From assembly GCA_963664435.2 (NCBI GenBank), contig CAXXKM010000003.1, positions 352,001 to 416,000 of the forward strand: 64,000 nucleotides of DNA, read 5' to 3'. Below the pieces are notes generated by a model. It was not told the DNA's origin. It searched no databases and saw nothing but the letters and a program-made list of their open reading frames with translations. The translations under genes were made by a program, and so were the position numbers. The first letter of the stretch is position 1, and each line of letters opens with the position of its first letter. The DNA comes from Longimicrobiales bacterium. Lineage in GTDB: Bacteria > Gemmatimonadota > Gemmatimonadetes > Longimicrobiales > Gaopeijiaceae. Positions 13,853 through 57,705 of the stretch are shown here, one piece after another.

Positions 13853-14057
13853 CGCTCGCTCATCAGCTCCACAAGCCGCTCCACGCAGATGTTCCATCCC
13901 ACTTCGTGCCCTTCCCTGTCCTCCGGAGTGGGAAAGCCCTCGTGGGAAAGCCGGACTTCGGTGCCGTCCTCGGCCCGCGCGAACTCTACCGTCACCAGGG
14001 TCTCCGCCCTCATCGGGTGCGGCTCCTTCCAGCTCCAAGTGTAAGCCAGCCGACGCG
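13849..14057 (-). pseudogene. SRPBCC/AHSA1 family gene, 3' half (split by element 1)
   Basis: RRLAYTWSW...TLVTVEF...TEVRLSHEGF...HEVGW; joins in frame to the 5' half at 18169-18407. Confidence 0.88.
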
Positions 14058-14151
14058 ACATGATTAGTCGATTTTGCAACTCGTTGTAATCAGTGAACTT
14101 GCGAGTTTCGTGGGCCGGATTCCCGCCGAATGATTCCCGCTGACCGGGATT

Positions 14152-15315
14152 TCAGCCGCGAACGTTTCTGCGGCCTTCCAGTGCCGTCCTGAGTTGTCCG
14201 GCGTCCGGCCTCTGGTAACACCTGAGCACCGTCTGTGCATCCTTCCACCCGCCAAGCTCACATAGCACCTTGAGCGGAAGGTCCATCAGGTCGCTGGCGA
14301 ACTTGCGCCTCAGCGAGTGCCAGCCCCGCCGCGGCTTCGGCTCCAGTCCCGCGAGCGTCTGGGCCTTCCTCCACCACTGAAAGGCGGTAACGCGGTGCAT
14401 GCACCGCGTGGCATCCTTCGACGAAGGCAGTACCGGCGTGTTGCCTTTCCCGGTGCCCATCCCGCGCGCTTCCTCCAAGGCGGCGAGGGCCTCGTCGGTC
14501 AGCGGCGTGACGTGCTCGTAGCCCGTCTTCTCGTGTTCCGCCCGCCAGCGTACTTCACGGCCCTCGAAGTCGATGTCCTCCCACCTGAGGTTGCGGATGG
14601 CTCCGATTCGGTGCCCGGTTTCGTGCGCGAGCACGAGGGCGACGTGGAACCGCCAACCGACCTGCCGCGAAACCCCGAGCATTGCCCGGTACTCGTCCTC
14701 GGTGAGGACGACCCGGGCGGGGTTCTTCTCCCTGGGCTTCCTGAGGCCCTTCAGCGGGTTCCTGTCGAGCAACAGGCGGCCCCGCTCGTCCTTCGACCTC
14801 TCGGCCCAGTTGAAGACCGCCATGAGGAACGTCAGGTCCCACTCGATCGTCCGGTTGCCCACGGGCCTGCCCGAACGGCCGGCCCTTCCGGCCCGGCGCG
14901 CTTGGATGAACCGATCCCAATCGCGCTGTGAGAAGGTGGCGGGGTCGCGGTCCCGTCCGAAGAAGTCGAGGAACATCGCGGTCGCGACCCTGTCGCGCTC
15001 GCGCGTCCGCTTCCCCTTGGTCGGGGTGACCTCCTCTCCGTAAATGTCAAAGAGCGTGCCCAGAGTGAGCGGCTCGGGCTCGGCCTCGGCCTTGCCGTTG
15101 GGCTCGTGGACCGCGAAGCCCGCGGCGGCCTCGTCGGCCTGCCGCTTCGCGCGAGCCCAATCGCGGTGCCCCAGCGACCGGCTCCGCCTGCGCCCGTTCT
15201 CCCTCCACTCGATCTGGAGCAGGCCGGTTTTCGGATCCGGAAACACCCGGACCCGGTTCCGGCCCCATTCTCCGGCGCTGTAGCTGCGCCGGCTTCGTTT
15301 CGTGCGTGCCATCAT
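14152..15315 (-). CDS. site-specific tyrosine recombinase/integrase
   Basis: ETGHRIGAI (R), HEKTG (K), WHSLRR (HxxR), LGGW, CYQ (Y); N-terminal arm-binding-like region. Confidence 0.93.
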   Translation of the reverse strand: MMARTKRSRRSYSAGEWGRNRVRVFPDPKTGLLQIEWRENGRRRSRSLGHRDWARAKRQADEAAAGFAVHEPNGKAEAEPEPLTLGTLFDIYGEEVTPTKGKRTRERDRVATAMFLDFFGRDRDPATFSQRDWDRFIQARRAGRAGRSGRPVGNRTIEWDLTFLMAVFNWAERSKDERGRLLLDRNPLKGLRKPREKNPARVVLTEDEYRAMLGVSRQVGWRFHVALVLAHETGHRIGAIRNLRWEDIDFEGREVRWRAEHEKTGYEHVTPLTDEALAALEEARGMGTGKGNTPVLPSSKDATRCMHRVTAFQWWRKAQTLAGLEPKPRRGWHSLRRKFASDLMDLPLKVLCELGGWKDAQTVLRCYQRPDAGQLRTALEGRRNVRG

Positions 15316-15339
15316 TCGATTCCTCCGAGTGATGGACTG

Positions 15340-16445
15340 CACGATCCGCCTGCCCGAAAGCTCGCGGGGAAGCGGCTTGTCCGCCAGTCGCGTGCGGAAG
15401 GCGGTTTCCGGCCCCGAAACCGCCACCGGGGCCGTAGCGGGAGTGTCCGTCCGACATCGGAGGCGGGCGGACACGAAAACGTCCTCTCAGCGGACACGCC
15501 CGCGATTCCCAATGTCGCTGCCCAACTTTCGGTTGCGAGATGGCCACGGGAGCGGCCGTGGCGCGCGGGAGCCTGCGGGAGTGACCGGAGCAACCCCCCT
15601 CTTTCGATGCCTGGCGTGCCATCGGGGAGGATCGACATGGACAGGCCCATGCCGTCCTCCGAGGGAGGGTTGCTCCGGTCCAGCGATCCTTGGCAGGAAG
15701 GCTTTCAAGACAGAATGGGCGAGCGCGTGCGGAGCACTCCGTCCGCGACCGTGGCCTGCCTCTCCCTTGCGGTGAGGGGCGGCCGGCTCGGACCCTCGTT
15801 CGGGCGGCGGGTCTCCCGGCGTCCGAACGAGGGTGGGCAAGCGAAGCGCGGCAGCCCGGTCCGGGGCCGGGAGGTTCTGGTCGAGGGCCGGAGCGAGGAT
15901 CTCGACCGATACCAGAAGGGCGAGCGGGCCGTGCGCCGACAGCGCCCGGTAAATCGAGCGTGCGGCACGCGACCGGTGGCGAACCCGGTTCCCGTCAAGC
16001 GAACGGCAACCATGGTCGTGCGGGCGGCCACCCGATCGGGATGGGCCGCCACGGGGGGACGGGGGGCGACGCCCCCGCCCGCGCAATCCACCGGAGCGCG
16101 GGTCTGTTGGGGATCGAAGGGGCAACGTCCCTCGCCAGCCCGAATGTATTACTTCGGGTAGGCTGGCTTGTGCGCCTAACGGTGCTCCAAGCCAGCCCTG
16201 CGGCCGCCCCGCAAGAGACGCTCCCGCGAGCCGCCCGAGAAGGCGGTGGCCGGGCTGTCGCGGGCAAGCTCCTCAGGCCTCTCGGTTGTCGACCGCACGG
16301 ACGGCGGGAGGCAACGGGCAACCCGTCACTTCTTTGCGACGGCGGCGCTCCGAGCCGCGCACCGATTTCACCCTACTCCCTCCTCGGAGACCCGGGGGCT
16401 CGTCGGTCCTGGGCGATCCTACGGCCGTAGGTTTTTCGAAGACCA
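15340..16445. other. structured non-coding region of element 1 (modules A 15750-15860, B 15966-16230, C 16341-16443)
   Basis: dense inverted repeats; modules recur in element 2 with compensatory changes; no credible ORF. Confidence 0.7.
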
Positions 16446-16529
16446 GTCCGGCGCGCCGCCTCTGGAGGGTCACCGGGAAGGTGACGGGCTTCCGCTATCC
16501 GACAGCGGTGCGCCGGACTGAGTGAAGGC

Positions 16530-17084
16530 CTACGTGGTCACTCGGCCCTGGAAGTAGCAGAACCCGCCGGCGTTGGTCCAGAACGTGATGTCCGTCAGCC
16601 GATTGGAATTCCACTTGACGTACCGCACTGCCAAGCTGCTCGTGTTGGTGTCCGGGTCGTAGGTCCAAGGGGAACCGGAATGGTCACCGTACCTGCTCCA
16701 CCGCGTTCCCGCGATGTAGTAGCAGGCGTTCGTGTTGGTCCCAGTTCTGCCGTCAATGCGTTTGCAGTCGCCCCCGGACGCGACGCCGACGCCATTGTTG
16801 CCGGGGGGACTCGCGTTCGTGAAGTAGACGCGGAAGTGATGGCCGTGGCTGGCGGTCCGCCCCGGCACCGTCACGTTCAGATCACCGAGGAGAGTGTTGG
16901 TCAGGTCGCGGTCCAGCGACACTTCGCAGCTCCCAGCCTTGGCGTCGGCGGCGGTCTGCGTCGCGGCGAGCCTCTCGCCCTCGACGGGCGTGGCGTTCTG
17001 GTCGGCGGGGATCGCCTCGGTCGGCATGTCGGCGCACGAGGACAGCGCCACGGCGGACAGGGCACAGAGGATGGTCTTCTTCAT
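16530..17084 (-). CDS. hypothetical lipoprotein (element 1 cargo)
   Basis: MKKTILCALSAVALSSC lipobox; AGGAG RBS; ATG overlaps the upstream TGA. Confidence 0.7.
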   Translation of the reverse strand: MKKTILCALSAVALSSCADMPTEAIPADQNATPVEGERLAATQTAADAKAGSCEVSLDRDLTNTLLGDLNVTVPGRTASHGHHFRVYFTNASPPGNNGVGVASGGDCKRIDGRTGTNTNACYYIAGTRWSRYGDHSGSPWTYDPDTNTSSLAVRYVKWNSNRLTDITFWTNAGGFCYFQGRVTT

Positions 17085-17685
17085 CGCTTCTCTCCTTGGG
17101 TCGGGGGGTGTTTGAAGTGGTTGATGTCGGATAGGTGAGCCCATCGGGCATCCCTTGACACGAAAATCAGGCGGAACGTGTCGCCGGGACCCAATCCGCT
17201 GGGGATCAGCGCCCAGTCGTCGGGCACCACGGTGGCGTTCTGCTGCCGGGCCTGCATGGCCATGGCGTTGGCTGCGACGGGGAGCGGCACGTCGGCCAAG
17301 GACAGCTCGGCTTCGTCGGCGAACGGCGCGGCGGTCGGGATCTCGCCGCACGAGACGCCTGCAAGGCCAGCCAAGAGGAACGGGAACGCCCGAAGCGGGC
17401 GGCGCTCCGCTAGCGGCGGAGCCGGTTCCGTGGTTGGAAGGGTGCCGCAGGCGTCGCCGCGGCGGAAGGAATCAGGCGGAGCGGCTAGAAGCCGAAGGCG
17501 CTTCCATCGAGACGTACGACAGGCTCGGCTCGGCTCGGCTCGGCTCGGCTCGGCTCGGCTCGGCTCGGCTCGGCTCGGCTCGGCTCGGCTCGGCTCGGCT
17601 CGGCTCGGCTCGGCTCGGCTCGGCTCGGCTCGGCTCGGCTCGGCTCGGCTCTTAACGGTGCTGCGTAATCGATACCCATGGCCAT
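17081..17685 (-). pseudogene. lipoprotein-like gene, out of frame across the GGCTC tract (possible phase-OFF state)
   Basis: GGAGGGAG RBS + ATG 17685; downstream frame LLAGLAGVSCGEIP..VPDDWALIPSGLGPGDTFRLIFVS is open through the tract but out of frame with the ATG. Confidence 0.55.
17522..17651. repeat. perfect pentanucleotide microsatellite (GGCTC)26
   Basis: 130 bp of uninterrupted GGCTC. Confidence 0.97.
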
Positions 17686-18168
17686 GTCAACTCCCTCCGC
17701 TACCATCGGCTCCTCAGGACCATGAAAGATAACCGACCGTTCCCGCCGGGAGCAAACTACTCCCCCGGGTGACCGGCGGAGTTCCGGAGAAAGCGGCCGC
17801 TCCCGAATCGGGCGGCGCGTTTGGGTTGGGCTAGTGGCCAGCGCCGCCTCGGCGACCTCCGTCCATCGACACGCGGAGCATGTCCCGGTTATCGGCGGTG
17901 CAAGTGTCCCGGAACGGCGAGTCCCGCGCAGTATGGGCGGTGCCGTTCGCCTCGGGAGCGACGAGGGAGTCGTCCGCGTCGCCAACGCCCCGAATCCCCT
18001 CGGATCCGTGTCGGGCGGCTCCCTCGATTTCCCGTCAAACGATTCCGGCTTTCCGGTCATTCCGGCACGATCCAGCAAGATCCAGCACAACGGCAGAAAG
18101 GGCGGATCATGCAGTCCTGTATGACTTTAGATGATTCCCTGCCGTGATTCTGGCCTCTGGCGTTCCGC

Positions 18169-18407
18169 CGACGCGGCGGATCGACCTCGCGGTAGGTGCC
18201 GTGGGCGGTCACGTGACCGTCCTCGACCTCCAGGCAAATCGAGTAGCGCCCGCCTACGCGCAGATCGACATCCACCTCCACACCCGCGCTCGGATCGGGA
18301 TGCGTCCAGCGTTCCACTTTCTCTCTGCCGGTCCAGGCCGCGAAGACCTGCTCGGGCGTTGCCGGGATGGTGCTGAGAAGGTGCAGGGATGTCGAGTTGC
18401 GACTCAT
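18169..18407 (-). pseudogene. SRPBCC/AHSA1 family gene, 5' half
   Basis: MSRNSTSLHLLSTIPATPEQVFAAWT...DLRVGGRY...HGTYREVDPPRR. Confidence 0.88.
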
Positions 18408-24266: not shown

Positions 24267-26131
24267 TCACCTTCGAGAATCTCAACGAGAATCAGCGCCG
24301 CGCCGTGGAGTGGAACGACGGACCGCTTCTCGTGCTCGCCGGACCGGGTTCGGGCAAGACTGGGGTCCTGACCCTACGGGTGGCTCGGCTGCTCGAAGAG
24401 GATGAGGATGCGGCGGCCTTGGCCCTTACCTTCACCACCAAGGCCGCCGCGGAAATGCGTGAGCGGGTGGACCAGCTCCTGGGCGAGCGCAGCGACCGAG
24501 CCCAGCTGTGCACCTTCCACTCCTTTGCGGCCGATGTTCTCGGACAGCACGGAAGCCATTTGGGAATCCGGCCCAACTTTCATCCGCTGACTCGGGACGA
24601 AGATCGGATTGCCATCCTCGAAGAGGTCATCAAAGACCTGCCGGGTGGTGGGTGGGAACTGCCACCGGATCGGAACAACGTCCTCAAACTCATTGATCGG
24701 CTATTCTCGGAATCGTACCCGGGCACAGGCGAGTCCGTCTCGCTGACCAACACTCCCGCATGGCTCCCACGACTCTTTCGACGCTACTGCGGCGCTCTGG
24801 TTCAGGCCAACCGGCTCGACTTCGGGAGCCTGCTCTACTTCGCAACCCGGCTCCTCAGAGCAAAGCCGGCCGTGGCGCGCGTGGTTCGCCTGGGTTGGAC
24901 GCACATCTGTGTCGACGAATTCCAAGACACCAACATGGCACAGTACGATCTTCTGCGACTCGTCGCGCCCGCCAGCGACCACAATCTGTTCGTCGTCGCG
25001 GATGACGACCAGATCATCTACCAATGGAACGGTGCTAGTCCAAAGCGCTTTCGAGACCTTCGCCGGGACTACGATCTGAAGGGCATTCAGCTACCGGAGA
25101 GCTACCGCTGCCCGGCTGCGATTATCGCACTCGCGAACCGCCTGATTTCACACAACAAACAGCGATTCAGCGCCAAGAAGGCCCTTTCAGTACATGATCC
25201 GGGAAGTCCTTACGGTGGAGCCGTGCGATTTGCCGATTTCCCGTCACCCGGGAGGGAGGCGGCGTTCGTGGCAAAGGACATTAGGGAACGCGGACTTCGG
25301 CCCTCTGAATGTGTTGTCCTCGGCCGAACCAACCAGCTGATACGAGGTGCCGCGGACACCCTCGAGAGAGCAGGGCTCGAAGCGTATTTGCCTCGCAAGA
25401 AGAGCGAGTTCGATTCGCCCGTCCTGGCAGTTCTCGTGGAGGCACTACGGTTGGCCAATTCCCGGCATGACCGGGTCATCCTCCGCAGGATTTGCCTGGC
25501 ATGGGAAGGGCTGACTGGCGTGGCCATCGACCCGAGTGGCGTCCGGGCCGCGGCGGCACTCGTGGGAGGTGACTTCCTGCGGGCCTGGGTTGACGTAGCG
25601 GCTGCCGCCAGCGGTACCAAAGGAGCGCTCAAGCAAATCCGGACCGATCTCGTGGATCGGCTGATGTTCCCGGAGATTGTCGATACCTTCCTCGACCAGG
25701 GATGGCGATCATGGAACGGGGCCGACCGCGCCGAATTGACCGACGAGGAAGTCACAACCTGGAAGGCCCTGCACCACGACATCATCACCGAGTACGGGGC
25801 GCGTGTGCCTTTGAATACCTACCTGCAGCAATTGGATCTGTCGTCAAAGACTCCGGCACCTGGACCGAACGCACTTCGGTGCATGACGGTACACGCCGCC
25901 AAGGGCCTCGAATTCAAGCATGTCTACCTGATCGGCATGGCCCAGGAGGTGTTTCCGTTCTATCGGGCCCTGAAGAAGGGAGCGACCAGCCAGGAAGTGG
26001 AGGAGGAACGAAGAAGTTGCTTCGTGGCAATCACGCGCGCGCGCAAGACGTTAACCATGACGAGATCAAGGACGTACTACGGCTACATGAAGGAGGCGTC
26101 TCAGTTCTTGCGGGAGATGGGCGGCGGGTAG
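24263..26131 (+). CDS. UvrD/REP-family SF1A helicase (GajB-like context)
   Basis: LAGPGSGKT, VDEFQD, DDDQIIYQW, SYRC, TVHAAKGLEF, FVAITRAR. Confidence 0.92.
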   Translation: MITFENLNENQRRAVEWNDGPLLVLAGPGSGKTGVLTLRVARLLEEDEDAAALALTFTTKAAAEMRERVDQLLGERSDRAQLCTFHSFAADVLGQHGSHLGIRPNFHPLTRDEDRIAILEEVIKDLPGGGWELPPDRNNVLKLIDRLFSESYPGTGESVSLTNTPAWLPRLFRRYCGALVQANRLDFGSLLYFATRLLRAKPAVARVVRLGWTHICVDEFQDTNMAQYDLLRLVAPASDHNLFVVADDDQIIYQWNGASPKRFRDLRRDYDLKGIQLPESYRCPAAIIALANRLISHNKQRFSAKKALSVHDPGSPYGGAVRFADFPSPGREAAFVAKDIRERGLRPSECVVLGRTNQLIRGAADTLERAGLEAYLPRKKSEFDSPVLAVLVEALRLANSRHDRVILRRICLAWEGLTGVAIDPSGVRAAAALVGGDFLRAWVDVAAAASGTKGALKQIRTDLVDRLMFPEIVDTFLDQGWRSWNGADRAELTDEEVTTWKALHHDIITEYGARVPLNTYLQQLDLSSKTPAPGPNALRCMTVHAAKGLEFKHVYLIGMAQEVFPFYRALKKGATSQEVEEERRSCFVAITRARKTLTMTRSRTYYGYMKEASQFLREMGGG

Positions 26132-26142
26132 AGAAACCGGCG

Positions 26143-26807: not shown

Positions 26808-26857
26808 GGATCCGCCTCCTGGTGCTGCCAGCCAACCCGCGCGACGGTGCCTGGTAC

Positions 26858-27931: not shown

Positions 27932-28134
27932 GTGGTGGTTTCCCCTACCTCGATCTCGCGGATTGCCATGCCAGCGGCATTCTCGACTGCCACTTCCATG
28001 TACTCGCGGACCGCATCCGCGATGGTCGCCAGAGCTTCCTCTTCCGTCGTCGCCTGGGAGGCACAACCCGGAAGGCCTGGAACCCAGACGGAGAATCCCT
28101 CTTCAGATTCTTCAAGCGCTACCCGGTATTTCAT
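27928..28134 (-). CDS. hicB: HicB-family antitoxin (no adjacent toxin)
   Basis: MKYRVALEESEEGFSVWVPGLPGCASQ.TTEEEAL. Confidence 0.85.
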   Translation of the reverse strand: MKYRVALEESEEGFSVWVPGLPGCASQATTEEEALATIADAVREYMEVAVENAAGMAIREIEVGETTT

Positions 28135-28234
28135 CGTCCACATCCAGGGTCATCCAGATCCAAAGCCGTCAAAGTACCGTTCAATTTAGCGTTTCGGGCG
28201 ACGAGGAGATCGAGACGTAGCTGCTGCCAGTGGG

Positions 28235-45300: not shown

Positions 45301-45337
45301 AGGCGATCAACGGGTCCTCGGTGTCGAGCGAGAAACA

Positions 45338-46879: not shown

Positions 46880-47760
46880 CGTTGCCTCCCACCAACTCGC
46901 TCACGAACTTCAGCCTGAATGTCGGACTCGTCCGCTGCGAGTGCGTCTCTGGGTGGTTCCAGGAGGAAACGCAAGTCGATGCGGCGGTTATCATCCGAGC
47001 GTTCCGGGTCGCGCGTCGCCGGCCGAGTGTTTCCGTACCCGCTGGTGCTAAGAATGGCGTAACCATCGCTGTTCAGCAGATTCTCCACCCCTGGTTCGCA
47101 GGCCGTGATCATCCGATGGACGGTGGCTGCCCGCATCGACGACAGCTCCAGGTTGTCTCTGAATCGCTGGCCGGCCGCGACCGGCACATGGTCGGTATGG
47201 CCCTCGATCAACAACGTCTCGAGTAACCAGGGGTATTGTCGCTCGCGACAATCGTAGGCATACGGATCGGCAGCCATCTCACAGTAGGCCGGGTCGCCGC
47301 CGTCACCACCCGCCATCGTGTCGAGGGCATGCCGTGTTGAGAACGTGTTGTCCTCGGGGACATAACAGGGGACAACTTCGGCGATGGCCCTGGCTACGCG
47401 CCCGACGTTGACGCGATGGTCGATGATCGGAGTTTCGCTCCCGGATGGGAAATTGATGGAATTTTCCGATAGCCGCAGTACGCCTTGGTCCAGCAACACC
47501 TCGACACGGATCTCAGATCTCTCAAGCCGATCGGCGATTGCCGTGAGTATTCGAGCGCGCGTCTCGTCCGCTGCCCTCAGTTCTTCGGTGACGCTGGCTT
47601 GTTCCTCTGTCGCCGTCGCGAGCTGGTACGCGAAAATCGCAAGCATGATAATGAACACAAAGATGAACGCGGACACCAGATCGCTTACGGTGGCAAGATA
47701 ATTCTGGCCACCTTGACTCTGGCCCGTACCCGAAGACGGTCGCCATTCGCCCGTTGTCAC
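46876..47760 (-). CDS. zorB: Zorya ZorB, MotB/OmpA-like
   Basis: SDLVSAFIFVFII TM with conserved Asp; IEGHTD, NLELSSMRA, NRRIDLRF. Confidence 0.88.
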   Translation of the reverse strand: MTTGEWRPSSGTGQSQGGQNYLATVSDLVSAFIFVFIIMLAIFAYQLATATEEQASVTEELRAADETRARILTAIADRLERSEIRVEVLLDQGVLRLSENSINFPSGSETPIIDHRVNVGRVARAIAEVVPCYVPEDNTFSTRHALDTMAGGDGGDPAYCEMAADPYAYDCRERQYPWLLETLLIEGHTDHVPVAAGQRFRDNLELSSMRAATVHRMITACEPGVENLLNSDGYAILSTSGYGNTRPATRDPERSDDNRRIDLRFLLEPPRDALAADESDIQAEVRERVGGRQR

Positions 47761-47762
47761 CC

Positions 47763-49514
47763 CTACCTCCCTAGATGTGCTGTCAAGTCTTCGATGGACT
47801 GGCTGAGTTCATGCGTAGCTCCGCCTAGCTCCTGGATGGTCTTGGAGGTCGTCCGATCCAGTTCGTTGGCAAACTCCTTCACCTGCTCACAATAGCCCGA
47901 TAACCCCTCGTCGATTTGCTGGAAGACCAAGGCAAGAGAGCTGTCGATCCCTTCGAAGCGGTCCTGGTATCGGGTCCAAGCCTCCGTTACTTCGGATTGG
48001 TGCTCCTCCAGCTTATTGACGCTCGAATCGATCCGGTCGACTAGCGCATTCGTACTTGTCACGGCATTGGCTGTCCTGTCGCTGGCTTCTTCGATCTCTC
48101 GAGCCGCTCGCGCGATCGGCGCTGCCGCGTCTGCTATCCGTCTCTGTGACATATCAATCGTCTCGCGAAGGACGTTGATTCGGTCGACAAACGTCGTCAT
48201 GTCGGCCAGAACTCGTTCGCTCTGCCGCGTGGACCGGTCAAGGCTTGCGGCTGCACCCTCCAGCCCGCGCAGCGAACCGGATATCCGGGAAGCAGCGTCG
48301 ACGGCCGACTCAGCGAGGTCGTTCGTCGCTGCCCCAACTGTCTTCTCCAGTTCTGCGGCAGCGGCGTGGCTCGACGTTGCAAGCTGGTCCGCCAATTGCG
48401 AAGAAGCCGTCGCCATCTCTTGGGCCACCGCTTGAAGCGATCGCTGTAGGGTCTCCGTCATCGCGCTCGCGCCAGCGTCCATGGATGTCGTCACGGTCGC
48501 CACGACCTCATCGAGCACCACCTTTATTTCGCGCTGCGACTGCGCCATTCCATCCGCTGACTCCTTCAGCGTGCGGTTCAAATCAGTGATGATCGAGGCC
48601 ATCTCCTCAAACTGCGATCCGGTACGTTCCTGCATAGCATCGGTGAACTGGCCAAGCACCTGCTCGATCATCCGCCCGGCGTCGCTTGATCGATCGGCGC
48701 GAAGTTCTTGTACTGCCTCTACCAGGCGGTCGAGCTGTGGCGACAGCCTACCGGCGATCTTCTCTTCCAGAGCCTGTTCGAGGGAGAAGATCAGATCGGT
48801 GTTGAACATTTCAAGTTGGTGGGTCGCGCGCTTCGCCTGTTCGAGCTGGTCCAGAGCGACTCCCTCCGAAGTGACCCTATTCACACAGGACTCGATTGAC
48901 TTGACCCAGTCATCCACCGCGAGATGAAGCTTGCGGGATACGCGCCGTTCGAAGAAGACGAAGATCATCGAAGACGAGATACCGACGACGGAGGTTACGA
49001 ACGCCAGAGAAGCACCGCTCAGTAGCTGTCGCAGGGACTCGGTGACTTGGACGGAGTCCCCGGAAGTAAGACCGGCACTCGCTGCTCCGACACCGGTCGC
49101 CAGTCCGGCGAAGGTGCCGAGGATTCCGAAGCCGGTTAGCAGATTGGGGACGGATCGGTAGAAGTCGAACGAGATCTTGGGGAAGATGATGCTCGTATCG
49201 TTCAGATAGCGGGAGACCGACTGCGTGTTCCGGATCGGCTCATCGGAGCCTGTGGGAAGCACCAGTGTCTCGACGAATTCCTTCCAGGGAGTACCGAAGC
49301 TCTCCTCCATCCTGGAATCGTAGCGTTCGAATTCATTGGCAAATCCTGATTCGCCACCGAACCCGTCGATCTCCTTTTTGCAATCCTTGAGCTTGGAACT
49401 CAGCGGGCGGGCTTCAAACCACGTCAGTTTGCCGATGCAAACCACGAGGAAGGCCCCGATCCCAGCGCAGTACGACCAGACGAAGATGCTCGTGAGAAGG
49501 ATGTCGAAGGTCAT
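47763..49514 (-). CDS. zorA: Zorya ZorA, MotA-like TM domain with long helical tail
   Basis: PNLLTGFGILGTFAGL, AFVTSVVGI TM motifs, long coiled tail; start could be 49580. Confidence 0.88.
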   Translation of the reverse strand: MTFDILLTSIFVWSYCAGIGAFLVVCIGKLTWFEARPLSSKLKDCKKEIDGFGGESGFANEFERYDSRMEESFGTPWKEFVETLVLPTGSDEPIRNTQSVSRYLNDTSIIFPKISFDFYRSVPNLLTGFGILGTFAGLATGVGAASAGLTSGDSVQVTESLRQLLSGASLAFVTSVVGISSSMIFVFFERRVSRKLHLAVDDWVKSIESCVNRVTSEGVALDQLEQAKRATHQLEMFNTDLIFSLEQALEEKIAGRLSPQLDRLVEAVQELRADRSSDAGRMIEQVLGQFTDAMQERTGSQFEEMASIITDLNRTLKESADGMAQSQREIKVVLDEVVATVTTSMDAGASAMTETLQRSLQAVAQEMATASSQLADQLATSSHAAAAELEKTVGAATNDLAESAVDAASRISGSLRGLEGAAASLDRSTRQSERVLADMTTFVDRINVLRETIDMSQRRIADAAAPIARAAREIEEASDRTANAVTSTNALVDRIDSSVNKLEEHQSEVTEAWTRYQDRFEGIDSSLALVFQQIDEGLSGYCEQVKEFANELDRTTSKTIQELGGATHELSQSIEDLTAHLGR

Positions 49515-49811
49515 CAGGGAGAAGCTCGGGAGGAGAGGGGATCGCAGACTAGTGGTGACACAACCGGTGCAGGATACCACGTGAACTTCGGGACCGCCAT
49601 CGCGACTCGCCCTTAGCCGAACAGGACGCTTCTCCAGAATCGCAACCGCTCTGCCAAGGGCACCGCCCCGTCGCGAGTCCCTACTCGCAATCTATTCCGA
49701 TCATCGACGCAGTCGAGCCGGAGTTCTGAAGCCCAGTCGGGCTGACGAACCCGAGGATGTCACAGGATGCGAGCGGCAGCCTGGTCCTGGTGACCTCTGT
49801 CTGATCCGGTC

Positions 49812-50885
49812 TCAGCTCGCCGACGCCTCCCGGTAGGCGTCGGTCAGGGCCTTGAGTAGCGCGGGGGTGATGGCCGTGGCGGAGCTCCCCTTTCCGATCT
49901 CCTTTCCGTTGATCCGTTCGACCTTGGCGATCGCGTTTGGCGCCCGCCTCTCGAATACTGACCGCCAAAGGGACAGGGATGGCTTCCCGTTGTCGTTCCA
50001 GATCGTCACCAGACCGGCCCTCTCCGTCGTGAACCTTGGGAGGAGAGTAAACCGGTCGCCATTCTTGCCCCGGTAGGTATAAAGGCAAACACCAGGCAGG
50101 TCCGCCAGCTCATCCGCCCAGCGCAAGAGCCGGCGGAATACTTGCCGATCTGCTTCTTCTGCCGCTGCCAAGGAAGCCTCAAACACCTCAGCGCCATCCG
50201 AGAGGACGCCTTGCGCAGTGGCGCGCGGCTTCATCGGTGAGTCGGCGGCGTTGGCGTCCAGGTCGAGCGAAACCCTTTGGGGCAGTGCGATTTCAGCACC
50301 ACCCATCGCAAACCGCGAAACAGTGATCAGGTCGATCGTGATGCCTTGTCTCGTCACGGCATCCAGGTAGGCGACGATTCTCTCCAGCTCAACCGAGGTT
50401 TCGTCCAGCAGTAGCACGAGTCGAAATGCCCCGCTGGACAGGTAGTCCTGCATGGCTGGCACGAATGCATCCGCGTCTACTTCACTCTGTTGATCCTGCG
50501 CTTGAACGGCCTCCAGAATCGACCCGTGGCCCTGCGTCTGGAGATACCCGCGCAACGGGCCGCGCTCCAAGTCCTCCACCTTCGATCCCCGGAGCCACGC
50601 GGCGTAGGAAAGCGCCTGAGCAACGATCGCCCGCCTGGCTTCGGCGTTCTTCGCAAGCTTGACTTCGATGATGACCGGGCGCCCCGACATCTCCACCGCC
50701 AACAGGTCCGCCCAGCCGGAACCCAGAGAGACCTCACTCCCGAGGACGACGAGGTTCGGAGAACCCGCCAACGGCAGCATGTGGATGTTTTCCTCGGCGA
50801 GTCCGTGGAGTTCCTTCTCCAACCCGAACTTCTGCGACGCTGCCGTCTTCCAGCCGCCGCTGCTCTTGACCCAGATTCCGCTCAT
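49812..50885 (-). CDS. NucS-like PD-(D/E)XK nuclease domain protein (paralog of 26858-27931)
   Basis: MSGIWVKS..GWKTAASQKFGLEK; ADLLAV, IIEVKL. Confidence 0.75.
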   Translation of the reverse strand: MSGIWVKSSGGWKTAASQKFGLEKELHGLAEENIHMLPLAGSPNLVVLGSEVSLGSGWADLLAVEMSGRPVIIEVKLAKNAEARRAIVAQALSYAAWLRGSKVEDLERGPLRGYLQTQGHGSILEAVQAQDQQSEVDADAFVPAMQDYLSSGAFRLVLLLDETSVELERIVAYLDAVTRQGITIDLITVSRFAMGGAEIALPQRVSLDLDANAADSPMKPRATAQGVLSDGAEVFEASLAAAEEADRQVFRRLLRWADELADLPGVCLYTYRGKNGDRFTLLPRFTTERAGLVTIWNDNGKPSLSLWRSVFERRAPNAIAKVERINGKEIGKGSSATAITPALLKALTDAYREASAS

Positions 50886-51093
50886 GTGTCGTCGCCCTTT
50901 TCCGTGCTGCCGAAACCAACAGGAATCAAACTGGTGCGGCAAGAGTAAGACGGAGCGGTCGTACCTGCGGAGGTTGCGGTGTTCGTAACCGTGCGCGACG
51001 GGATTGCCGCAACCGGCGACGCAGTCGCGCTCCGCAACGCTATCAGATCTTCCTACCATCGGGAGTGGTACGGAAGCGGTCGCGGACCGTCGG

Positions 51094-51290
51094 TCACACC
51101 AGCTCTCCTCGATCACCCCACCGCTTCTCGAACTCGCGAAGGCGCCGCCGGGTTTCCGCGTCCGGACTGATGATGAAGAACGTCCGGTTGCTCACCCGGC
51201 GCCAATAGTCGGCCAAGGTGCCGTCCGGAAGTTGGCTCTTCCACCAAGAGATCTCAGCGCGATGGCCACCCCGGCGTCTGGGGCGTGAGT
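51094..51290 (-). pseudogene. C-terminal remnant paralogous to 28235-28936
   Basis: GGHRAEISWWKSQLP..YWRRVSNRTFFII.PDAETRRRLREFEKRWGDRGELV. Confidence 0.8.
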
Positions 51291-51423
51291 GCTGTAGTAA
51301 CCCAAGAGGGGCAACCATAACGTAACGGCATGCGGTGTCAGGTTGGCATCTTTCTGTGAGCGTTAGAGTTATGGAATTGGAAGGCCGGATTCCCGCTATT
51401 TGACTCCCGCCGAATGGCGAGCC

Positions 51424-52314
51424 TCAGCCGCGAGGTCTCGGACGGGCTTCCAGTGCCTTCCGAAGCTGTCCCTCGTCGGCTCGCTGATAACACTGGAGCA
51501 CCGTCTTGGCGGTCTTCCGGCCTCCGAAGTCGCAGAGGACCTTGAGCGGCAGGTCCATGAGGTCGCTGGCGAACTTGCGCCGCAACGAGTGCCAGCCCCG
51601 CCCACGCCTGGGTTCGAGTCCCGCGAGCTTCTGGGCTCGGTTCCACCAGAAGCGCACCAGCGTCCGGCCCGCGCACCGCGACGGATCTCGTGGTGCGGGG
51701 AGCACCGGAGCAACCTCGATCCCGGCGCTCCGCTCTCGCGCCTGCTCAAGGACGGCGACCGCCTCGGCCGTCATCGGAGTCCGGTGTTCGTAGCCTGTCT
51801 TCTCGTGTTCGGCCCTCCACCGGATGGCTCGGGCTTCAAGGTCGATATCCGACCACCTGAGGTGGCGGATGGCCCCGATTCGGTGCCCGGTCTCGTGCGT
51901 CAGCACGAGCGCGACGTGAAACCGCCAATCGACCTCCCGGGACACCCCGAGAAGCGCCTGGTATTCCTCTTCGGACAACACGACCCGGGTCGGGTTCTTT
52001 TCAGTGGGCGTCTTCAGACCCTTCAGCGGGTTCGAGCCGAGGAGCAGCCGGCCCTCCTCGTCCTTCGACTTGCCGGCCCAGTTGAACACGGCGATCAGGA
52101 ACTTCAGATCGTGTTCGATCGTCGCGTCGGACACCGGTTTGCCGCTCGCTCCGACCTTGCCCGCGCGCCGCGCCCGGATGAACCGGTCCCAGTCGCGCCG
52201 GGAGAGCGTTGAAGGCTTGCGGCCTCGTCCGAAGAACCCGAGGAACATCCTCGTCGCGGCCCGGTCGGCCCGCTGGGACGCCTCCGCCTTGGTGGGCGTC
52301 ACCTCTTCACCGTA
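51424..52314 (-). CDS. tyrosine recombinase, paralog of 14152-15315, lacking the N-terminal ~90 aa
   Basis: ETGHRIGAI, WHSLRRKFASDL, CYQR; homology stops at YGEEVTPTK; LGGW changed to FGGR. Confidence 0.85.
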   Translation of the reverse strand, partial: YGEEVTPTKAEASQRADRAATRMFLGFFGRGRKPSTLSRRDWDRFIRARRAGKVGASGKPVSDATIEHDLKFLIAVFNWAGKSKDEEGRLLLGSNPLKGLKTPTEKNPTRVVLSEEEYQALLGVSREVDWRFHVALVLTHETGHRIGAIRHLRWSDIDLEARAIRWRAEHEKTGYEHRTPMTAEAVAVLEQARERSAGIEVAPVLPAPRDPSRCAGRTLVRFWWNRAQKLAGLEPRRGRGWHSLRRKFASDLMDLPLKVLCDFGGRKTAKTVLQCYQRADEGQLRKALEARPRPRG

Positions 52315-53439
52315 GGGAAGGTCGCGGCATCGAGGCTTCTCCGGCAGTCGCGGCCCGACCGATGCGCTACCTTCCCGGGGCGGGTTTGTACGCGCGCGAT
52401 CCGCTCCAGCCCTGAGGGCGCGGTCACGGCTTGCGGGGCAGTTGCGGTCGCCGACCGGGCGGGTGAGCGGCTGATCGCCGTTTGATGGCGTGACACGGCC
52501 CCGCGCTTGCGGGGTTTCCGTGGAGCCAGATGTGTTTTCGCTTCACGAAAACCTCTGGCCGGGGGGTATCCCCCCGGACCCCCGAACGACATTCCGCGCG
52601 CCACCCAAAGGAAGGCCGCCCGTCATGGTTCGTCCCCGGAAGCCCGAGGCCGAACGCAGGACCCGCACGATCGGCGTGCGCGAGGAGCAGGCCTCCATGC
52701 GCTTGAGATCTTGACCTCCGATCGGCCGGGGGTCGGTGGCGTACCGCGCGTGCACATCGACATCGGGGTGCATGTGCACGGAATCCACCGCGTCCATGTG
52801 CGCGGGCAGGGGCTCCGTATGTCGCTGCCCGCGTTGCGGTTGTACCACGGCCGCACGAACGGCGGTGCCGTTCCAGAGTGTGCGGCCGTGGCGGGAGCGA
52901 CCCCGCCCTTCGGGTGCCTGGTACGGCACGGCGACGTTCAGGATGTGCACGGCCTATCCCAACCTCGCCTGGGGTCGCTCCCGGTCCATCAATCCCATGC
53001 GGGAAGGCCAACGGCACGTCGTTCCGACGGTCGGATCCGGCTGAACGCCGGGGCTGCCGACGGCCAGCTCCCCTCGCCGTTCAAGATGGGAGTGACCCCC
53101 GTCGGAGGCCTCTCGGAGGTGGAGGGTGAAGCGCGCGCCCTAGCGCCGTCCGAACGTCAGGCTCGGCCCTGCGGCGGTGGGCGAAACATCTCCAGCGTCG
53201 TACTCGATGCCCGCTCTCACCGCCGTGCGGACGAACCACCGGGCGCGTCCGAGCCGGCGGATTGCCTTCGATGGCGCTGGACTTGGTTCGGACGGGTAAG
53301 ACGGATCGGCCATTCCCGCCGTGTCTTCGCCGTGTGGGCAGCCCCGGCAATGGGATTGAAGATTCTTCTGATTCTAAGGATCGCTGTCACGGTGCAGAAA
53401 GGCTCACCTCGAGTCCACCTTCAGCCGCCAAGTGTCGCG

Positions 53440-53916
53440 CTAACGTCGGCGGTCTGGATCCGGCTCGGTAAGCGCTTCACCTGCTTGCGCCTCGCCTATG
53501 CCGGCAGCCTGCCTACCTGCCGGAGTAAGCGCGAATTCGTCTTCCGTCAGGTCGCCGTAGAGATAGGCCCAGTTCTCGCCATTGTGCTGGCTCACGATCA
53601 TGACCGAAGTAGTGTCCTGGAGATACGACCTAGGCCTCACGACGCAGTTCCGCCACGCTCCCAACACATAGGTCAGCCTGTACAGAGACTCGCGGGTCTT
53701 GTGGTCGTCCCACAACAACCCATTGACCCTTACCTCTGGTATGTATCCACCCCCAACCTCACCCGCCTCCACCATCCGCAAACGACCGCCAGCATTGAAC
53801 CTTTCGATGGCGTCCTCAGCGGCCTCGACAACCCGTTCGTCGTCGCATCTCCACTGCGCCTCAACCGGCGCAGCCAGCACGCCCAGCGCCCCAAGTCCTA
53901 CCAGCAGCTTTCTCAT
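53440..53916 (-). CDS. secreted hypothetical protein (element 2 cargo)
   Basis: TAAGGAGG RBS; signal peptide MRKLLVGLGALGVLAAPVEA. Confidence 0.7.
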   Translation of the reverse strand: MRKLLVGLGALGVLAAPVEAQWRCDDERVVEAAEDAIERFNAGGRLRMVEAGEVGGGYIPEVRVNGLLWDDHKTRESLYRLTYVLGAWRNCVVRPRSYLQDTTSVMIVSQHNGENWAYLYGDLTEDEFALTPAGRQAAGIGEAQAGEALTEPDPDRRR

Positions 53917-54577
53917 TTCGAAGCCTCCTTACACTTCGGACAGGTGGAAAACTCAACATGCCCGTTCACGAACGCTTCCTTCACGTATGCAATGCCGCAA
54001 GCGAGCCCACGTGACTTCGCTAGAACAAGGTGGGTCAGCAGGCCAGTCTTCTCCACGAAAGCCGGATTGCGGCAGCAGTGCCAACAGGTCACGTCGCGAC
54101 CGATTTCCGTCAACCGCCCCCTCACCCTTCTCCTGCAAACGGCCTTTCGGTCGCCCGCGTCGAAATGTGTTTTTGCCAATCGTTTCGTCCTGGATTGCTC
54201 CCCGAACCGAATCCTCGAGGGCCTGTCGAGCGCCACGCCATCAAACAGGTCGGCTTGCCGAACCGGGATGAGCTCTTAGGTGGAAGGTGGGACTTGGTCG
54301 ACCGGGTGGCAACAGCGACCGCACCACCCCTAGGATCATCCTGCCCAATCGCCCTCCGGAACGCCCAGAATCGCCTTGTGAGCGTCTTTGTCGGCCTCGG
54401 CGGGGATGCGCGGGGGGCTGTGGCCTCGATGGTCGCCACTGTCGGTCGTCAGTCCAAGCCTGAAGGCCCACCGCCAGCCGCATCGCCCCCAGTTGATCGC
54501 CCGCGCCTGAGTCTGCCGTCTTGCGGTAGAGTTAGATGGTGATCGAGACCAGCGGCGCATGGGGACTTGCCGGGGGC

Positions 54578-55240
54578 GGCGCGCGACCGGTGGCGAACCC
54601 GGTCCCGGCACGCGGACGGCGAATCGCCGGGCGGGCGGCTACCCCATCGGGATGCGCCGCCACGAGGGAACGGGGGGCGACGCCCCCGCCCGCGCAATCC
54701 ACTGGAGCGCGGGGCTTCCAGGGTTCGAAGGGGCGGAGTCCCTCGCCAGCCCCGGTGTATTACACGGGGTAGGCTGGCTGAACCACGTTAGCGTGGCTAA
54801 GCCAGCCCGGTGGTGCCGCCGAGAAACGCTCCGGGCACCGCCCGCAACAGTGTCCACCGGGGCGTCGCGAGCAGCCCCTCGGCGCTGCGGTCGCCAGTTG
54901 TCTCATGGGCGGCGAGCGCGCGGTCGCGTTCCGCCCTGCCTTCGACCCCCTCGGGAACCCGAGATCGTCGATCTCGGGCGATCCTGCGGCCCGCAAGTTA
55001 CCCGAAAACGCTCCGGAACCCGCGGAAATGGCCTCTGAGCCGAGCATGGAAAGAACGCCGGTTGCGCAACATGGACCTGCCCCGCTTTCACGGACGGTTG
55101 GTTCATGGGGTTGATGGTGTCTGATGTGGTTTGCCTCTCCCTTGCGGAGAGGGGCGGCGGAATTGGACCCTCGGTCGAACGGTGGGTCTCCCGGCGTCCG
55201 ACCGAGGGTGGGCAAGCGAAGCGCGCCAGCCCGCCAGGCC
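54578..55240. other. structured non-coding region of element 2 (modules B 54578-54836, C 54907-55010, A 55126-55235)
   Basis: homologous to the element 1 modules, with hairpins preserved. Confidence 0.72.
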
Positions 55241-55335
55241 CGCCGGCACGCGAGCCGGATCCGTGGCATGGCCGGGATGCTGGCACGAAGCCTATCGCGT
55301 AGGTGCGGGAACGTGGTGAGGGCGATCCGACGGCG

Positions 55336-56364
55336 TCATCGCCAGGGAGGCGTAGCAACTCCCAACTCCCGCGCAACCTGCAGGAAGTAGGTTGCTCTTC
55401 TACTACTCATCCGACTCTCCAATAACTCAAGCTCGATCCGCTCCGACTCGGCTTGAGCTGCGGCCCTTTGCCTGGCTGCTTGCCTAAACGCCTCGGCGTC
55501 CGCCTCGGCGATCCGGGTCTGATCCTCAGCAAAGAGCCGTAAGCTATCCATCCTAGCAACAAAATCGGACCTGAGCCGGTTCCATTCCAACTGAGATTCG
55601 ACCACGGGGCACCAGAAACGCACCGAGTCTGCGGCTGCCGGCAACCCCGCCAATGGGAATTCGACGACGCCTTTGAGCTCGATGCCCACCGTATCTCGGC
55701 CGAAATAGTGGGCTGCCGCGTAGTCGTGAGCTTGATGCCATCCCTCACGGACGACCGCTTCAAGGCGATCAAACTCGCTACGTGCCCTTTCCCCTTCAGC
55801 GCGCATGCGTCTGTCATCGGATCCGAGTGTGCTTAGGTACCGGTCATGATATACCACGGCCAGACCCATAAGGCCGTCACGCGCCTCCTGCGTAGCGTTC
55901 CTCGTAGTGAATCTCGGGGGCCCGAGGCCCGTCTGGCCCTCGAGATACCAGCCTCCAACGGTGGGCCGCGGCTGATACTCCCACGCGTAAACACGGCCAT
56001 CCACGGCCATGCGCGCGGCATCCAGCAGCCCGAACTGTCCGCGGAGCTCCTCGAACGCTTCCTCATCATCCACGAGCAACGACGTATCCGGCAGGGATAT
56101 GCGGAAAAACAGACCATCCCGGTGCCACGGTGGTTCGCTCACCTGATCCACTCGACACCAATAGCCCACGGTAACCGGAATTGTATCGCGGCCGGCGACC
56201 AGATTCTCCGTAGGACCGTAGGTACGAAACAGGCCGGTTCGCCGGCCGGTCAGGTTGTCGACGTCCGCCTCAACGGAGCCGGGCCAAGCAACCTGATCCG
56301 CCGGATCACTACAACCGCAGAAGGCAAAGCTAACCGCAAGCGCAACGACAGCGCCTCTCGCCAT
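55336..56364 (-). CDS. hypothetical lipoprotein (element 2 cargo)
   Basis: MARGAVVALAVSFAFCGC lipobox; GGAG RBS; C-terminal coiled coil. Confidence 0.65.
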   Translation of the reverse strand: MARGAVVALAVSFAFCGCSDPADQVAWPGSVEADVDNLTGRRTGLFRTYGPTENLVAGRDTIPVTVGYWCRVDQVSEPPWHRDGLFFRISLPDTSLLVDDEEAFEELRGQFGLLDAARMAVDGRVYAWEYQPRPTVGGWYLEGQTGLGPPRFTTRNATQEARDGLMGLAVVYHDRYLSTLGSDDRRMRAEGERARSEFDRLEAVVREGWHQAHDYAAAHYFGRDTVGIELKGVVEFPLAGLPAAADSVRFWCPVVESQLEWNRLRSDFVARMDSLRLFAEDQTRIAEADAEAFRQAARQRAAAQAESERIELELLESRMSSRRATYFLQVARELGVATPPWR

Positions 56365-56695
56365 TACTTCTCCCGAGTGAGTGGGTCCGAAGGGTCACCA
56401 CAACACCGAGATTGCTGCGGTTTGCCCGGCCTGCGCAAGGGAGGCCACGGGAGAGTTGTTGTGGGTGCAGCTGGATTCGCGCGCTGAGTGCAACCCATCC
56501 TGCGGGACGCTGGACGGGCGGTTGGCTCAGAACGGCTGCGACGAGTCTGCGGAGGAACCATGCTTACGAGTTCTGCACGGAAGGTGCCTTGTCCCGAAGG
56601 GCACCTGTTGCCGGCACGCCATTGCGCCGAACCATCCGTGCTGGCATCCTTGGCGTCGGTCCTCTCCGGCGTCGTAATCAACCTTAGGATCCGAA

Positions 56696-57430
56696 ATGAG
56701 CAAGAGCTACACTTCCGATCTTGACGCAGCCCACCACCGCTTTTTCCACAAGCTGAGGATTGACCACGAGACGGGATCAATCTCGAAGGACCGTAAGTTC
56801 GCCGGTTATCCGTACGTGGGCGCGCGATATGGCGTCGATCCCCGATGTAACAAACTCCTTGTGGTCGGTTTGGATTCCGGCAAGGACAAGAATCCCGGTG
56901 GTGGCCCTTTTCGAGATCGCGGAGAGTTTGAGAGGGCGGCCGTTGATCCGAAGCTCAATGCTCACATGGCGGGAGTCTACTTCGCCGCGCTTCGTTACGC
57001 GTGGCCGCCGGATTGGGGTTGGAGGCATGTGGAGGCTCAACAGGAGACATGCGAAAGGTTGCTCAAGAAACGCGGGTGGGGTCTCGTACTGGAAGAGCTG
57101 AAAGGGAACCCGCTACAGTACATCGCCTTCACGAACTTCTACAAGTGGGTCACGAAAGGGCGGGAAAACCGGGCGGGCGAGAAGGATCGTACGCACTTCG
57201 ATCGCCAAGCTGAGATTGCGCTTTTTCACGAGGAGGTGCGCGTCTTGCAACCCGACATCGTCGTGTTCCAGAGCAAACGGTTCGTAGAACCCGAGTTCGC
57301 CAACACCCGCCGCTTCGTCGAAGGAATCGCTCACTGTTATGTTCTCGTGCATCCCTCCAATCGAGAACGAGGTGGGCGTCGTCCGCGTAGCGTCGTGACA
57401 CCCCTTTATCGACGCACCAAGAGGGCGTAA
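56696..57430 (+). CDS. uracil-DNA glycosylase superfamily-like protein (element 2 cargo)
   Basis: KLLVVGLD, FTNFYKW, EVRVLQPDIVVF, VHPS match UDG-fold motif spacing. Confidence 0.6.
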   Translation: MSKSYTSDLDAAHHRFFHKLRIDHETGSISKDRKFAGYPYVGARYGVDPRCNKLLVVGLDSGKDKNPGGGPFRDRGEFERAAVDPKLNAHMAGVYFAALRYAWPPDWGWRHVEAQQETCERLLKKRGWGLVLEELKGNPLQYIAFTNFYKWVTKGRENRAGEKDRTHFDRQAEIALFHEEVRVLQPDIVVFQSKRFVEPEFANTRRFVEGIAHCYVLVHPSNRERGGRRPRSVVTPLYRRTKRA

Positions 57431-57705
57431 CGTAACGGGGTCTTGGCTCCCGCCAATCGAACCCGTTTTCCCGCTGTCGCGGCACGATCCAGCGGGGTCC
57501 AGTCCAACGGCAGAAAACGCAGATCGTGCAGTCCTGTAAGACTTTAAACGATTCTCTGCCGGGATTCGGACCTCGTGTGCTCCGCCGTAACGTCAGGGTT
57601 GCTCACCCGATCCCGGCATCCCCTGAACCCCTCAACGGAGGTCGCAGTCATCCCGTATATTGGACAGCCTGACCAAGACGGGAACGGACCAGGGAGCCAC
57701 AGGCC

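Follow-up and report, generated by a model that had tools for sequence, protein, structure and literature searches.

Elements 1 and 2 of a Longimicrobiales contig are members of a large family of integrative elements with a lambda-type integrase and inherited 7-bp cores

Several described systems built around an arm-binding tyrosine integrase share part of their design with the two elements treated here, elements 1 and 2, which lie in a window of 64,000 nucleotides (the whole stretch that was analysed) from contig CAXXKM010000003.1 of a Longimicrobiales bacterium. These elements are two of about 30 copies of a large family of ICEs (integrative, conjugative elements) and IMEs (integrative, mobilizable elements) in sponge-type bacteria. 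The preferred reading, to which a probability of about 70% is given, is that they are minimal members whose lambda-type integrase needs core homology, and that rare mismatched insertions let the cores drift. mv4 Int recombines any 7-bp overlap when attP and attB match (bioRxiv 2023.11.06.565760), and mv4 and lambda Int resemble the family in having an arm-binding tyrosine integrase and a 7-bp overlap between degenerate inverted core-binding sites. mv4 Int, however, has one natural target, which was retargeted in vitro, whereas the family shows 68 natural cores; it also has the Tn916 beta-hairpin, which the family integrase model lacks. In the published hierarchy of iOriT, iMOB and ICE classes (bioRxiv 10.64898/2026.01.13.699239; PMC5704250), up to nine integrative elements occur per chromosome and low-specificity IMEs reach 2-6 copies. 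Elements 1 and 2 likewise combine an integrase, attachment (att) sites and an origin of transfer (oriT, here putative) without a relaxase, and their siblings are likewise relaxase-only or carry a full type IV secretion system (T4SS). Unlike the published hierarchy, all three classes here draw on a single integrase family, present about 30 times in the genome under study (G000; G001, G005 and G008 denote other genomes of the same genus).

The streptococcal IME_oriT elements (PMC7563843) resemble the family in their insertion into a nic-containing oriT stem-loop and in their occasional secondary sites in the chromosome. They target MobT oriTs in Firmicutes, whereas the oriT-targeting members here have their target upstream of a mobC/MbeA-like operon of their own siblings. 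Membership in that group was rejected: IME_oriT elements have a MobT (Rep_trans) of their own, while the relaxase matches in the family, among 96 scanned proteins, are to PF03432 and MbeA-like. Like the integrators at tRNA anticodon loops (PMC8371274), some family members use the 7-bp loop and replace the 3' half of the gene. Unlike those integrators, most members have left tRNA genes and keep a decayed 3' half in register, and one targets tRNA-Val backwards, carrying the 5' half. A secondary-site route to new integrase specificity has been proposed previously (PMC8371274, with Rutkai et al. 2006 as cited there). Tn916/Tn1549 and CTnDOT (PMC8138268) share with the family the many insertion sites and the arm-binding tyrosine integrase. 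RIT elements, which need three adjacent recombinases, do not accommodate the family, which has one family integrase beside each left end. Tn554/TnpA, whose companions are tnpB and tnpC, is a simple recombinase without an arm domain; here an arm-type domain is present and there is no second recombinase in elements 1 and 2.

Element 1 (14051-18175, 4125 bp) is bounded by CGACGCG at both ends, with end identity reaching 9 bp, and element 2 (51321-57592, 6272 bp) by CGTAACG at each end. An earlier note, made from the letters alone, had proposed these coordinates and exact 7-bp repeats, which are borne out in the sequence; the left-end motifs of both elements occur exactly as written there, and the common right end is 81% identical between the elements across 108 bp by BLAST. 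The 43-kb span of that finding is two separate elements and not a single feature. As had been said, element 1 lies in a protein-coding gene and element 2 is intergenic. The interrupted gene encodes an AHSA1/SRPBCC protein, the halves of which match positions 2-58 and 60-124 of the PF08327 profile. The flank is matched in seven of the 18 other genomes of the genus, and the gene is uninterrupted, with a single core-like 7-mer, in all five inspected (best-matching) loci of relatives. Contigs of two runs, X15 and X19, read across the left junction of element 1 with no difference, and either run may be the source sample; run contigs were compared over 13000-17500 only, for four of 19 runs. Neither element is at a tRNA gene, the sole Rfam match in the window being the tRNA at 6493. 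At the gathering threshold, an Rfam scan of the whole window gives no structured-RNA family in either element, so that guidance by RNA is not supported. Over its left 995 bp, element 2 shows 96-97% identity with three further copies elsewhere in the genome. The claim of a shared integrase holds in that a homologous gene is present in both elements, and fails in that the copy in element 2 breaks off at 52315, without approximately the first 90 codons including the arm-binding domain. The cargo, described as unrelated, includes three internal modules common to both elements at 67-88% identity, one of them oriT-like.

The integrase of element 1 has the distinctive features of its class. R235, K262 and Y366 are invariant among 80 homologues, while H332, R335 and W356 are at least 90% conserved. 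The structure model (predicted local distance difference test score, 91.9) has N-terminal strands at 21-25, 32-38 and 41-46 and a helix at 52-68, and its top Foldseek match is full-length lambda Int at 18% identity. Catalytic-domain strands 253-256 and 267-270 are joined by a short loop holding K262, and the model contains no extra beta-hairpin between them. Pfam gives no arm-domain match on this integrase, NCBIfam places it below every cut-off, and it matches PHROG 1. Each end of the elements holds two TTCCCGC-type direct repeats, presumed to be arm-type sites, and BLAST finds no inverted match between the left and right ends. The catalytic residues, the modelled N-terminal domain and the predicted core and arm sites all fit an arm-binding (heterobivalent) tyrosine integrase of the lambda type. 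The 14-bp motif GATCGTGCAGTCC occurs in the integrase leader (15334-15346) and in the right end (18105-18117) of element 1; 51 of its 52 genomic matches are at those two places, and the remaining one is in an interrupted integrase leader.

The family is larger than the earlier note had supposed and follows a different rule; it is a known kind of element with its own variation. A multi-copy tyrosine-recombinase family with exact 7-bp core duplications and arm-type repeats is confirmed, and what had been missed is that the family forms a hierarchy of ICEs and IMEs, in which there are members with a T4SS, a relaxase or an oriT, and that some family members are at tRNA genes. In this genome, 33 tblastn matches comprise about 30 loci 55-91% identical to the integrase of element 1 and one distant fragment, and profile searches give 46 right-end and 29 left-end matches. 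By an identical 7-mer in fixed register, 22 left ends pair with a right end, and the paired elements span 396 kb, or 8.8% of the assembly. Of the 18 other genomes of the genus, 17 match the integrase, with as many as 47 matches in one genome, and outside the genus strong matches are few; G008, which is 96% complete in a single contig, gives no integrase match. The unpublished genome G025 underlies none of the statements made here. Most named relatives belong to the Gemmatimonadota (Longimicrobiales, Ca. Palauibacter); others are Gammaproteobacteria, Terriglobia and Vicinamibacteraceae bins on short contigs and may be misbinned, and more distant integrase relatives are found at 38-57% identity. 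The plasmid collection gives no match by tblastn. The literature searched does not describe the family, although the TIGER database or clade lists or the supplements of PMC8138268 may already list these integrases; site-promiscuous integrase clades of the TIGER survey are mentioned briefly in PMC12884075.

Decayed prophage ends, which the earlier note had listed among the findings that would refute its reading, are largely refuted and have next to no probability left. The PHROG 1 match and the lambda-like fold of the integrase would suit a prophage, but tblastn against 50,697 phage records gives no integrase match, and the Pfam scan, which took in 96 proteins out of a representative set of 108 drawn from 20 regions that cover part of the elements, finds conjugation genes instead of any capsid, terminase, tail or other virion or packaging family. 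A prophage or phage satellite was rejected on the same grounds.

Tabulation of cores across this genome and its relatives, a check that the earlier note had asked for, shows that the duplication is general. Ends of G001 and G005 were added only where the protein or the right-end pattern had located them, and a candidate right end is one within 70 kb of the left end. Among 86 left ends, 57 pair at all seven positions, three pair at six of seven and 26 are unpaired. The 57 perfect pairs come from 74 left ends with a candidate partner, while permuted cores give a mean of 5.8 and a maximum of 14 in 2000 permutations. The end-to-end identity falls to 56% at position -1 and 44% at +1. When the nearest right end is simply taken in the fetched loci, a few of which repeat G001/G005 sites, 17 of 20 pairs are perfect. 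Heterology-tolerant integration like that of Tn916/CTnDOT, with the ends homogenised later by repair or by repeated excision and reinsertion, would account for the existence of mismatched pairs, for the 17 of 74 ends without a perfect partner, and for the fast drift of cores in the oriT clade (core identity 0.57, 14 members). Tn916-type transposons have non-identical coupling sequences. Here 57 of the 60 assigned core pairs are identical, like most nearest-end pairs, and the targets are not AT-rich, on which grounds Tn916-type membership was rejected. The beta-stranded insertion between catalytic strands 2 and 3, a hallmark of IntTn916 (PMC8138268), is not in the model. Heterology-tolerant integration is highly improbable.

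With 76 further loci, there are 155 left ends next to an integrase; once duplicate and orthologous sites are removed, 111 independent sites remain, which carry 68 different cores. The proposed CG-NNN-CG rule does not survive this count: it fits only nine of the 22 paired elements in this genome, 22 of the 111 sites and eight of the 68 cores, and 16 of those 22 sites are one palindrome, so that other copies do lack the pattern. The supposed conserved CG edges of the crossover are likewise displaced, since the conserved bases sit outside the core: 86% of the 111 sites have G at position -2, and 82% of the 50 host arms, as well as 98% of element arms, have C at position +2. Nor is the centre of the core freely variable, as had been thought; it is passed on with the element. 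Integrases at least 95% identical differ at 0.26 of seven core bases versus 2.72 of seven flank bases (39 pairs, 111 sites), and the core difference is 4.5 at 70-80% integrase identity. Of 36 non-specialist elements with a neighbour at least 90% identical, 26 carry that neighbour's core despite unrelated flanks, and one lineage has the core CTACGCG at 10 unrelated sites. For each of ten cores tried, this genome holds 1-28 sites fitting the fuller consensus, so that such lineages behave like moderately specific transposons. The description of the family as low-specificity and transposon-like thus applies to some lineages at many unrelated sites and not to several clades that are site-specific. 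True target-site duplication, in which a low-specificity transposon copies any 7 bp at its landing site, is the explanation nearest to the earlier note. The 68 cores with their exact duplications, and the many insertions in unrelated genes, speak for it, but it is very unlikely: free copying would not lead one to expect the same core in almost identical elements whose loci are unrelated, the enzyme belongs to the tyrosine recombinases and has arm-type repeats, BLAST gives no inverted match between the ends, and one mismatched pair, described below, differs as an exchange between element and target predicts.

An unlikely alternative, less so than those above, is that specificity is encoded in the protein, ordinary site-specific integrases reading the target including the core and core changes following protein changes. 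The distance between cores correlates with the distance between integrases (63 sites, Mantel r 0.37, a value that none of 2000 permutations reaches), which speaks for inheritance of the core as well; the tRNA-gene and palindrome clades keep both core and flanks, and in some elements the right and left arms now mimic the target palindrome. However, the CTACGCG, TACCGCA, TGCACCA and TGGTGCA lineages keep the core while their 7-bp flank identity is only 0.29-0.48, and integrases 96-97% identical have cores differing at two bases. Characterised integrases, moreover, match the overlap DNA-to-DNA without readout (bioRxiv 2023.11.06.565760).

Change of the core is visible within short integrase distances. 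An integrase 97% identical to that of element 1 carries the core CGACTCC. The element G005_3899074, 93% identical, has the left core CGACGTG and the right core CGACGCG, which is that of element 1, and its empty orthologous site in G000 is CGACATG, nearer to the left copy. Judged from these three sites, its ends follow the pattern that heteroduplex exchange would predict. The element L127 is a pair matching at five of seven positions that sits on a split oriT. The pairs G005_1169493 and G001_2653603, matching at six of seven, were set aside as possibly mispaired.

The targets of the family fall into several classes. The 111 sites comprise 16 with a CGT(A/T)ACG-centred palindrome, 13 oriT-like sites, five palindromes of the TCTGC-CATTTTG-GCAGA type, four tRNA genes and 73 others, at least 11 of which match family integrase genes; three of 16 right ends adjoining integrase sequence were merely the left ends of neighbours and were dropped. 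In one copy, the CGT(A/T)ACG palindrome has a -35-like hexamer on one side and a -10-like hexamer on the other, at a spacing of 19 bp, and the gene downstream, for which no profile match was obtained, is presumably a MerR/TipA-type regulator. In G005, two right ends (C1:4300927-4300935 and C1:4320515-4320523) stand head to head across one such core: the palindrome is used in both orientations. The TCTGC-CATTTTG-GCAGA-type palindrome is often found in pairs, sometimes upstream of open reading frames (ORFs), and looks like the operator of some regulator. Paired copies of this 17-bp palindrome lie at C1:72058, C2:148196, C2:182714 and C3:225511 of G000, among others, and the ORFs that follow are, as we take them from their translations, clpB-, uvrA- and argR-like. 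Two mobC upstream regions in G000 are interrupted by family right ends just inside a conserved GCTGGCT motif, and the end of the oriT hairpin adjoins 11 of 118 right ends. The clade of element 1 is mostly found after AGCCAGC, and its cores vary as the hairpin varies, with nine different cores at the 13 oriT-like sites. Since the same AGCCAGC motif lies inside the host SRPBCC gene, element 1 is best read as a member of the oriT-targeting clade that landed off target, at a 14-bp look-alike. Element 2 is a member of a clade that targets the MerR-operator-like palindrome, and it would need an integrase in trans.

The left arms carry what seems to be a vestige of tRNA genes. The 33 bases after the left core match the profile of the tRNA 3' halves of this genome with a mean z of 2.6 over 70 arms, or 2.2 without the first five bases, while shifts of 1-3 bases lower the score to 0.7, 0.5 and -0.4. 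For some members the target is the 7-bp anticodon loop in a gene for tRNA-Val, -Pro or -Ala, and those at anticodon loops carry a true 3' half in the left-arm position. The left arms may thus be a decayed inheritance from a tRNA-targeting ancestor; the direction of descent is not proven, because the tree is midpoint-rooted only. At G000:C3:1131978-1202465, one tRNA-Val gene is occupied by two elements in opposite orientations, with a 3' half from one and a 5' half from the other.

The mobility genes are distributed unequally among the members. In the 22 paired elements of G000, relaxase matches are found in eight and VirB4, VirB6 and VirD4 matches together in three. The Pfam families include VirB2, VirB4-type, VirB6, VirB8, VirB9, VirB10, VirD4-type, ArdC, MobC and the relaxase PF03432, together with restriction-modification, Cas and surface-protein families among the cargo, and there is no Rep_trans match among the 96 scanned proteins. 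NCBIfam MbeA and MbeD matches are both below cut-off; the gene order of ColE1 is mobC-mobA/BDE (PMC9282650). The oriT-like module common to elements 1 and 2 corresponds to the region upstream of mobC in the relaxase-bearing siblings. Its hairpin, compared in 11 copies, is 95.5% paired with 13 compensatory cells, which none of 500 shuffles equals and which is far above slid controls; the sequences are related and the structure was drawn from those same sequences. Position and structure together suggest that the module is an oriT. Elements 1 and 2 fit the iOriT class, since both carry this mobC-upstream module and the relaxase is only in siblings: an integrase (truncated in element 2), att sites and an oriT-like region are present, and relaxase and mating-pair formation genes are absent.

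Some further observations concern individual members. A relaxase-bearing element (L207:5575-10998; G000:C2, element at 463881) carries Cas3, Cas7-like (DevR) and Cas5-like cargo. The genome has four (GGCTC) arrays, of 18-26 units, all within or beside a family element. Inside element 2, before its right end, 57415-57441 is a near-copy of the left flank and core (CCAAGAGGG...TAACGTAACG), possibly the scar of an earlier insertion. At G000:C3:~811, near a contig start, a right end abuts a left end with nothing between them, at three bases below the expected length, in what appears to be an attP-like or tandem junction.

In the proposed mechanism, the integrase would excise a circle in which a single 7-bp core joins the right end to the left end. 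The MbeA-like relaxase of a sibling could then nick this circle at the putative oriT, and the T4SS of a sibling ICE could transfer it. Integration would occur at a chromosomal 7-mer identical to the core of the element, a pattern that the paired ends display and that would reflect a requirement for homology, between flanks that form a loose inverted repeat, approximately (T/A)GC-N7-GC(A/G), of which only the G at -2 and the C at +2 seem well kept. After a rare insertion with one or two mismatches, the cores of the two ends would differ, and the new core could be carried off when the element is next excised, by which the target would change with the integrase unchanged. The family is likely to have come from an integrator at tRNA anticodon loops, the replacement 3' half of which would survive as the decayed left arm, and its lineages would since have settled on multi-copy symmetric sites or roamed among unrelated ones.

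Several points weigh against this reading. No excisionase is recognised in elements 1 or 2, and the candidate in ICE-type members is an HTH_17 lead of only 13%. The contigs examined, which cover only the left part of element 1, show no circle, empty site or transfer. The flanks of the three pairs matching at six of seven positions map to a single empty site in only one, and the drift mechanism rests on two cases, because two of those three pairs are possibly mispaired. Mismatches may exceed three in 60, because pairing by core match favours perfect pairs and 17 of the 74 ends are without a perfect partner. The palindrome clades keep their flanks too (arm identity 0.81-0.88), and a contribution of protein readout therefore has to be allowed for. 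Because the sequences behind the tRNA-arm scores are related, these scores lack independence, and the arm of element 1 is weak (z 1.8). The nick position is one that we assume from ColE1-type oriTs, and the literature searched does not confirm it.

A more far-reaching proposal, the chances of which fall somewhat short of even, is that this is a naturally retargetable integrase family. A 7-bp DNA address borne by the element would very largely set the insertion, the protein would read only about two flanking bases, and mismatched insertion would rewrite the address; elements would track the diversifying oriT hairpins of their siblings with the enzyme unchanged, and the genomes would record target switching from a tRNA anticodon-loop ancestor. 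How site-specific integrases switch targets is an old question, mostly studied on single phages, and here over 100 natural insertion sites are available, with identities from 65 to 99%. Since likely ancestral (tRNA), intermediate (mismatched ends) and endpoint (operators, oriT, sibling genes) states are visible, overlap drift should be separable from protein change by phylogeny and assay. If the flank needs are as loose as they appear, DNA-programmed insertion of cargo is a possible use of the enzyme. The family is probably a main route of gene flux in these bacteria, because it makes up about 9% of the genome and carries defence, surface-protein and CRISPR cargo.

Table 1. Features of elements 1 and 2 and of their insertion sites, in positions of the window
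Feature	Position	Strand	Basis or remark
AHSA1/SRPBCC host gene, 3' half; AGCCAGC beside core, like oriT target	13849..14050	-	
Element 1 left core, 7-bp overlap CGACGCG	14051..14057	+	sequence; register fixed across family
Element 1 left arm, register of decayed tRNA 3' half	14058..14090	+	weak (z 1.8)
Element 1, two direct TTCCCGC-type repeats, presumed arm-type sites	14119..14140	+	
Element 1 intact tyrosine integrase, 386 aa, PF00589	14152..15312	-	
GATCGTGCAGTCC motif upstream of element 1 integrase start; second copy in right end	15334..15346	-	
Element 1 module M1, common to both elements	15512..15702		13 BLAST matches in genome
Element 1 module M2, common to both elements, holds inverted repeat	15751..15858		
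Element 1 oriT-like module (putative); covarying hairpin 16134-16167	15962..16237	+	
Element 1 cargo ORF, 184 aa, lipoprotein-like N terminus	16530..17084	-	no Pfam/NCBIfam family
Element 1 (GGCTC)26 microsatellite	17522..17651	+	
Right end of element 1, with degenerate arm repeats, a conserved block of ~105 bp and TCCGC as core-binding half	18028..18168	+	
Element 1 right core CGACGCG	18169..18175	+	sequence
AHSA1/SRPBCC host gene, 5' half	18176..18407	-	Pfam, relatives
Element 2 palindromic target, left half	51311..51320	+	8/10 bases complementary to 57593-57602
Element 2 left core CGTAACG	51321..51327	+	sequence
Element 2 left arm, like decayed tRNA 3' half	51328..51360	+	z 3.7
Element 2, two direct arm-type repeats (presumed)	51389..51410	+	
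Element 2 5'-truncated integrase gene	51424..52315	-	
Element 2 module M1 copy	52819..53008		
Element 2 cargo ORF, 158 aa, signal-peptide-like start	53440..53916	-	no family
Element 2 oriT-like module (putative); hairpin 54745-54778	54576..54844	+	
Element 2 module M2 copy	55126..55233		
Element 2 cargo ORF, 342 aa, lipoprotein-like	55336..56364	-	no family
Element 2 cargo ORF, 244 aa	56696..57430	+	weak uracil-DNA-glycosylase-superfamily match, E 0.0024, below cut-off
Element 2 right end: two arm repeats and conserved block	57447..57585	+	
Element 2 right core CGTAACG	57586..57592	+	sequence
Element 2 palindromic target, right half	57593..57602	+	

The surroundings of the two elements contain several other genes. 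The tRNA in the window is a tRNA-Ser gene (6493-6576, +). A complete Zorya type I system with ZorA, ZorB, ZorC and ZorD, called by PADLOC, occupies 41983-49580 (-), and a 1706-aa DUF4011/DUF3320 helicase-nuclease, called PDC-S37 and Hhe by PADLOC, lies at 35711-40831 (-). An IS630-like transposase (DDE_3) is found at 61300-62379 (-). Genes like pRiA4b ORF3 occur repeatedly, along with two NucS-like/PDC-S11 genes that are related to each other, at 26101-28422, 34111-34707, 49812-51116 and 57706-58281, and element 2 lies between one such pair.

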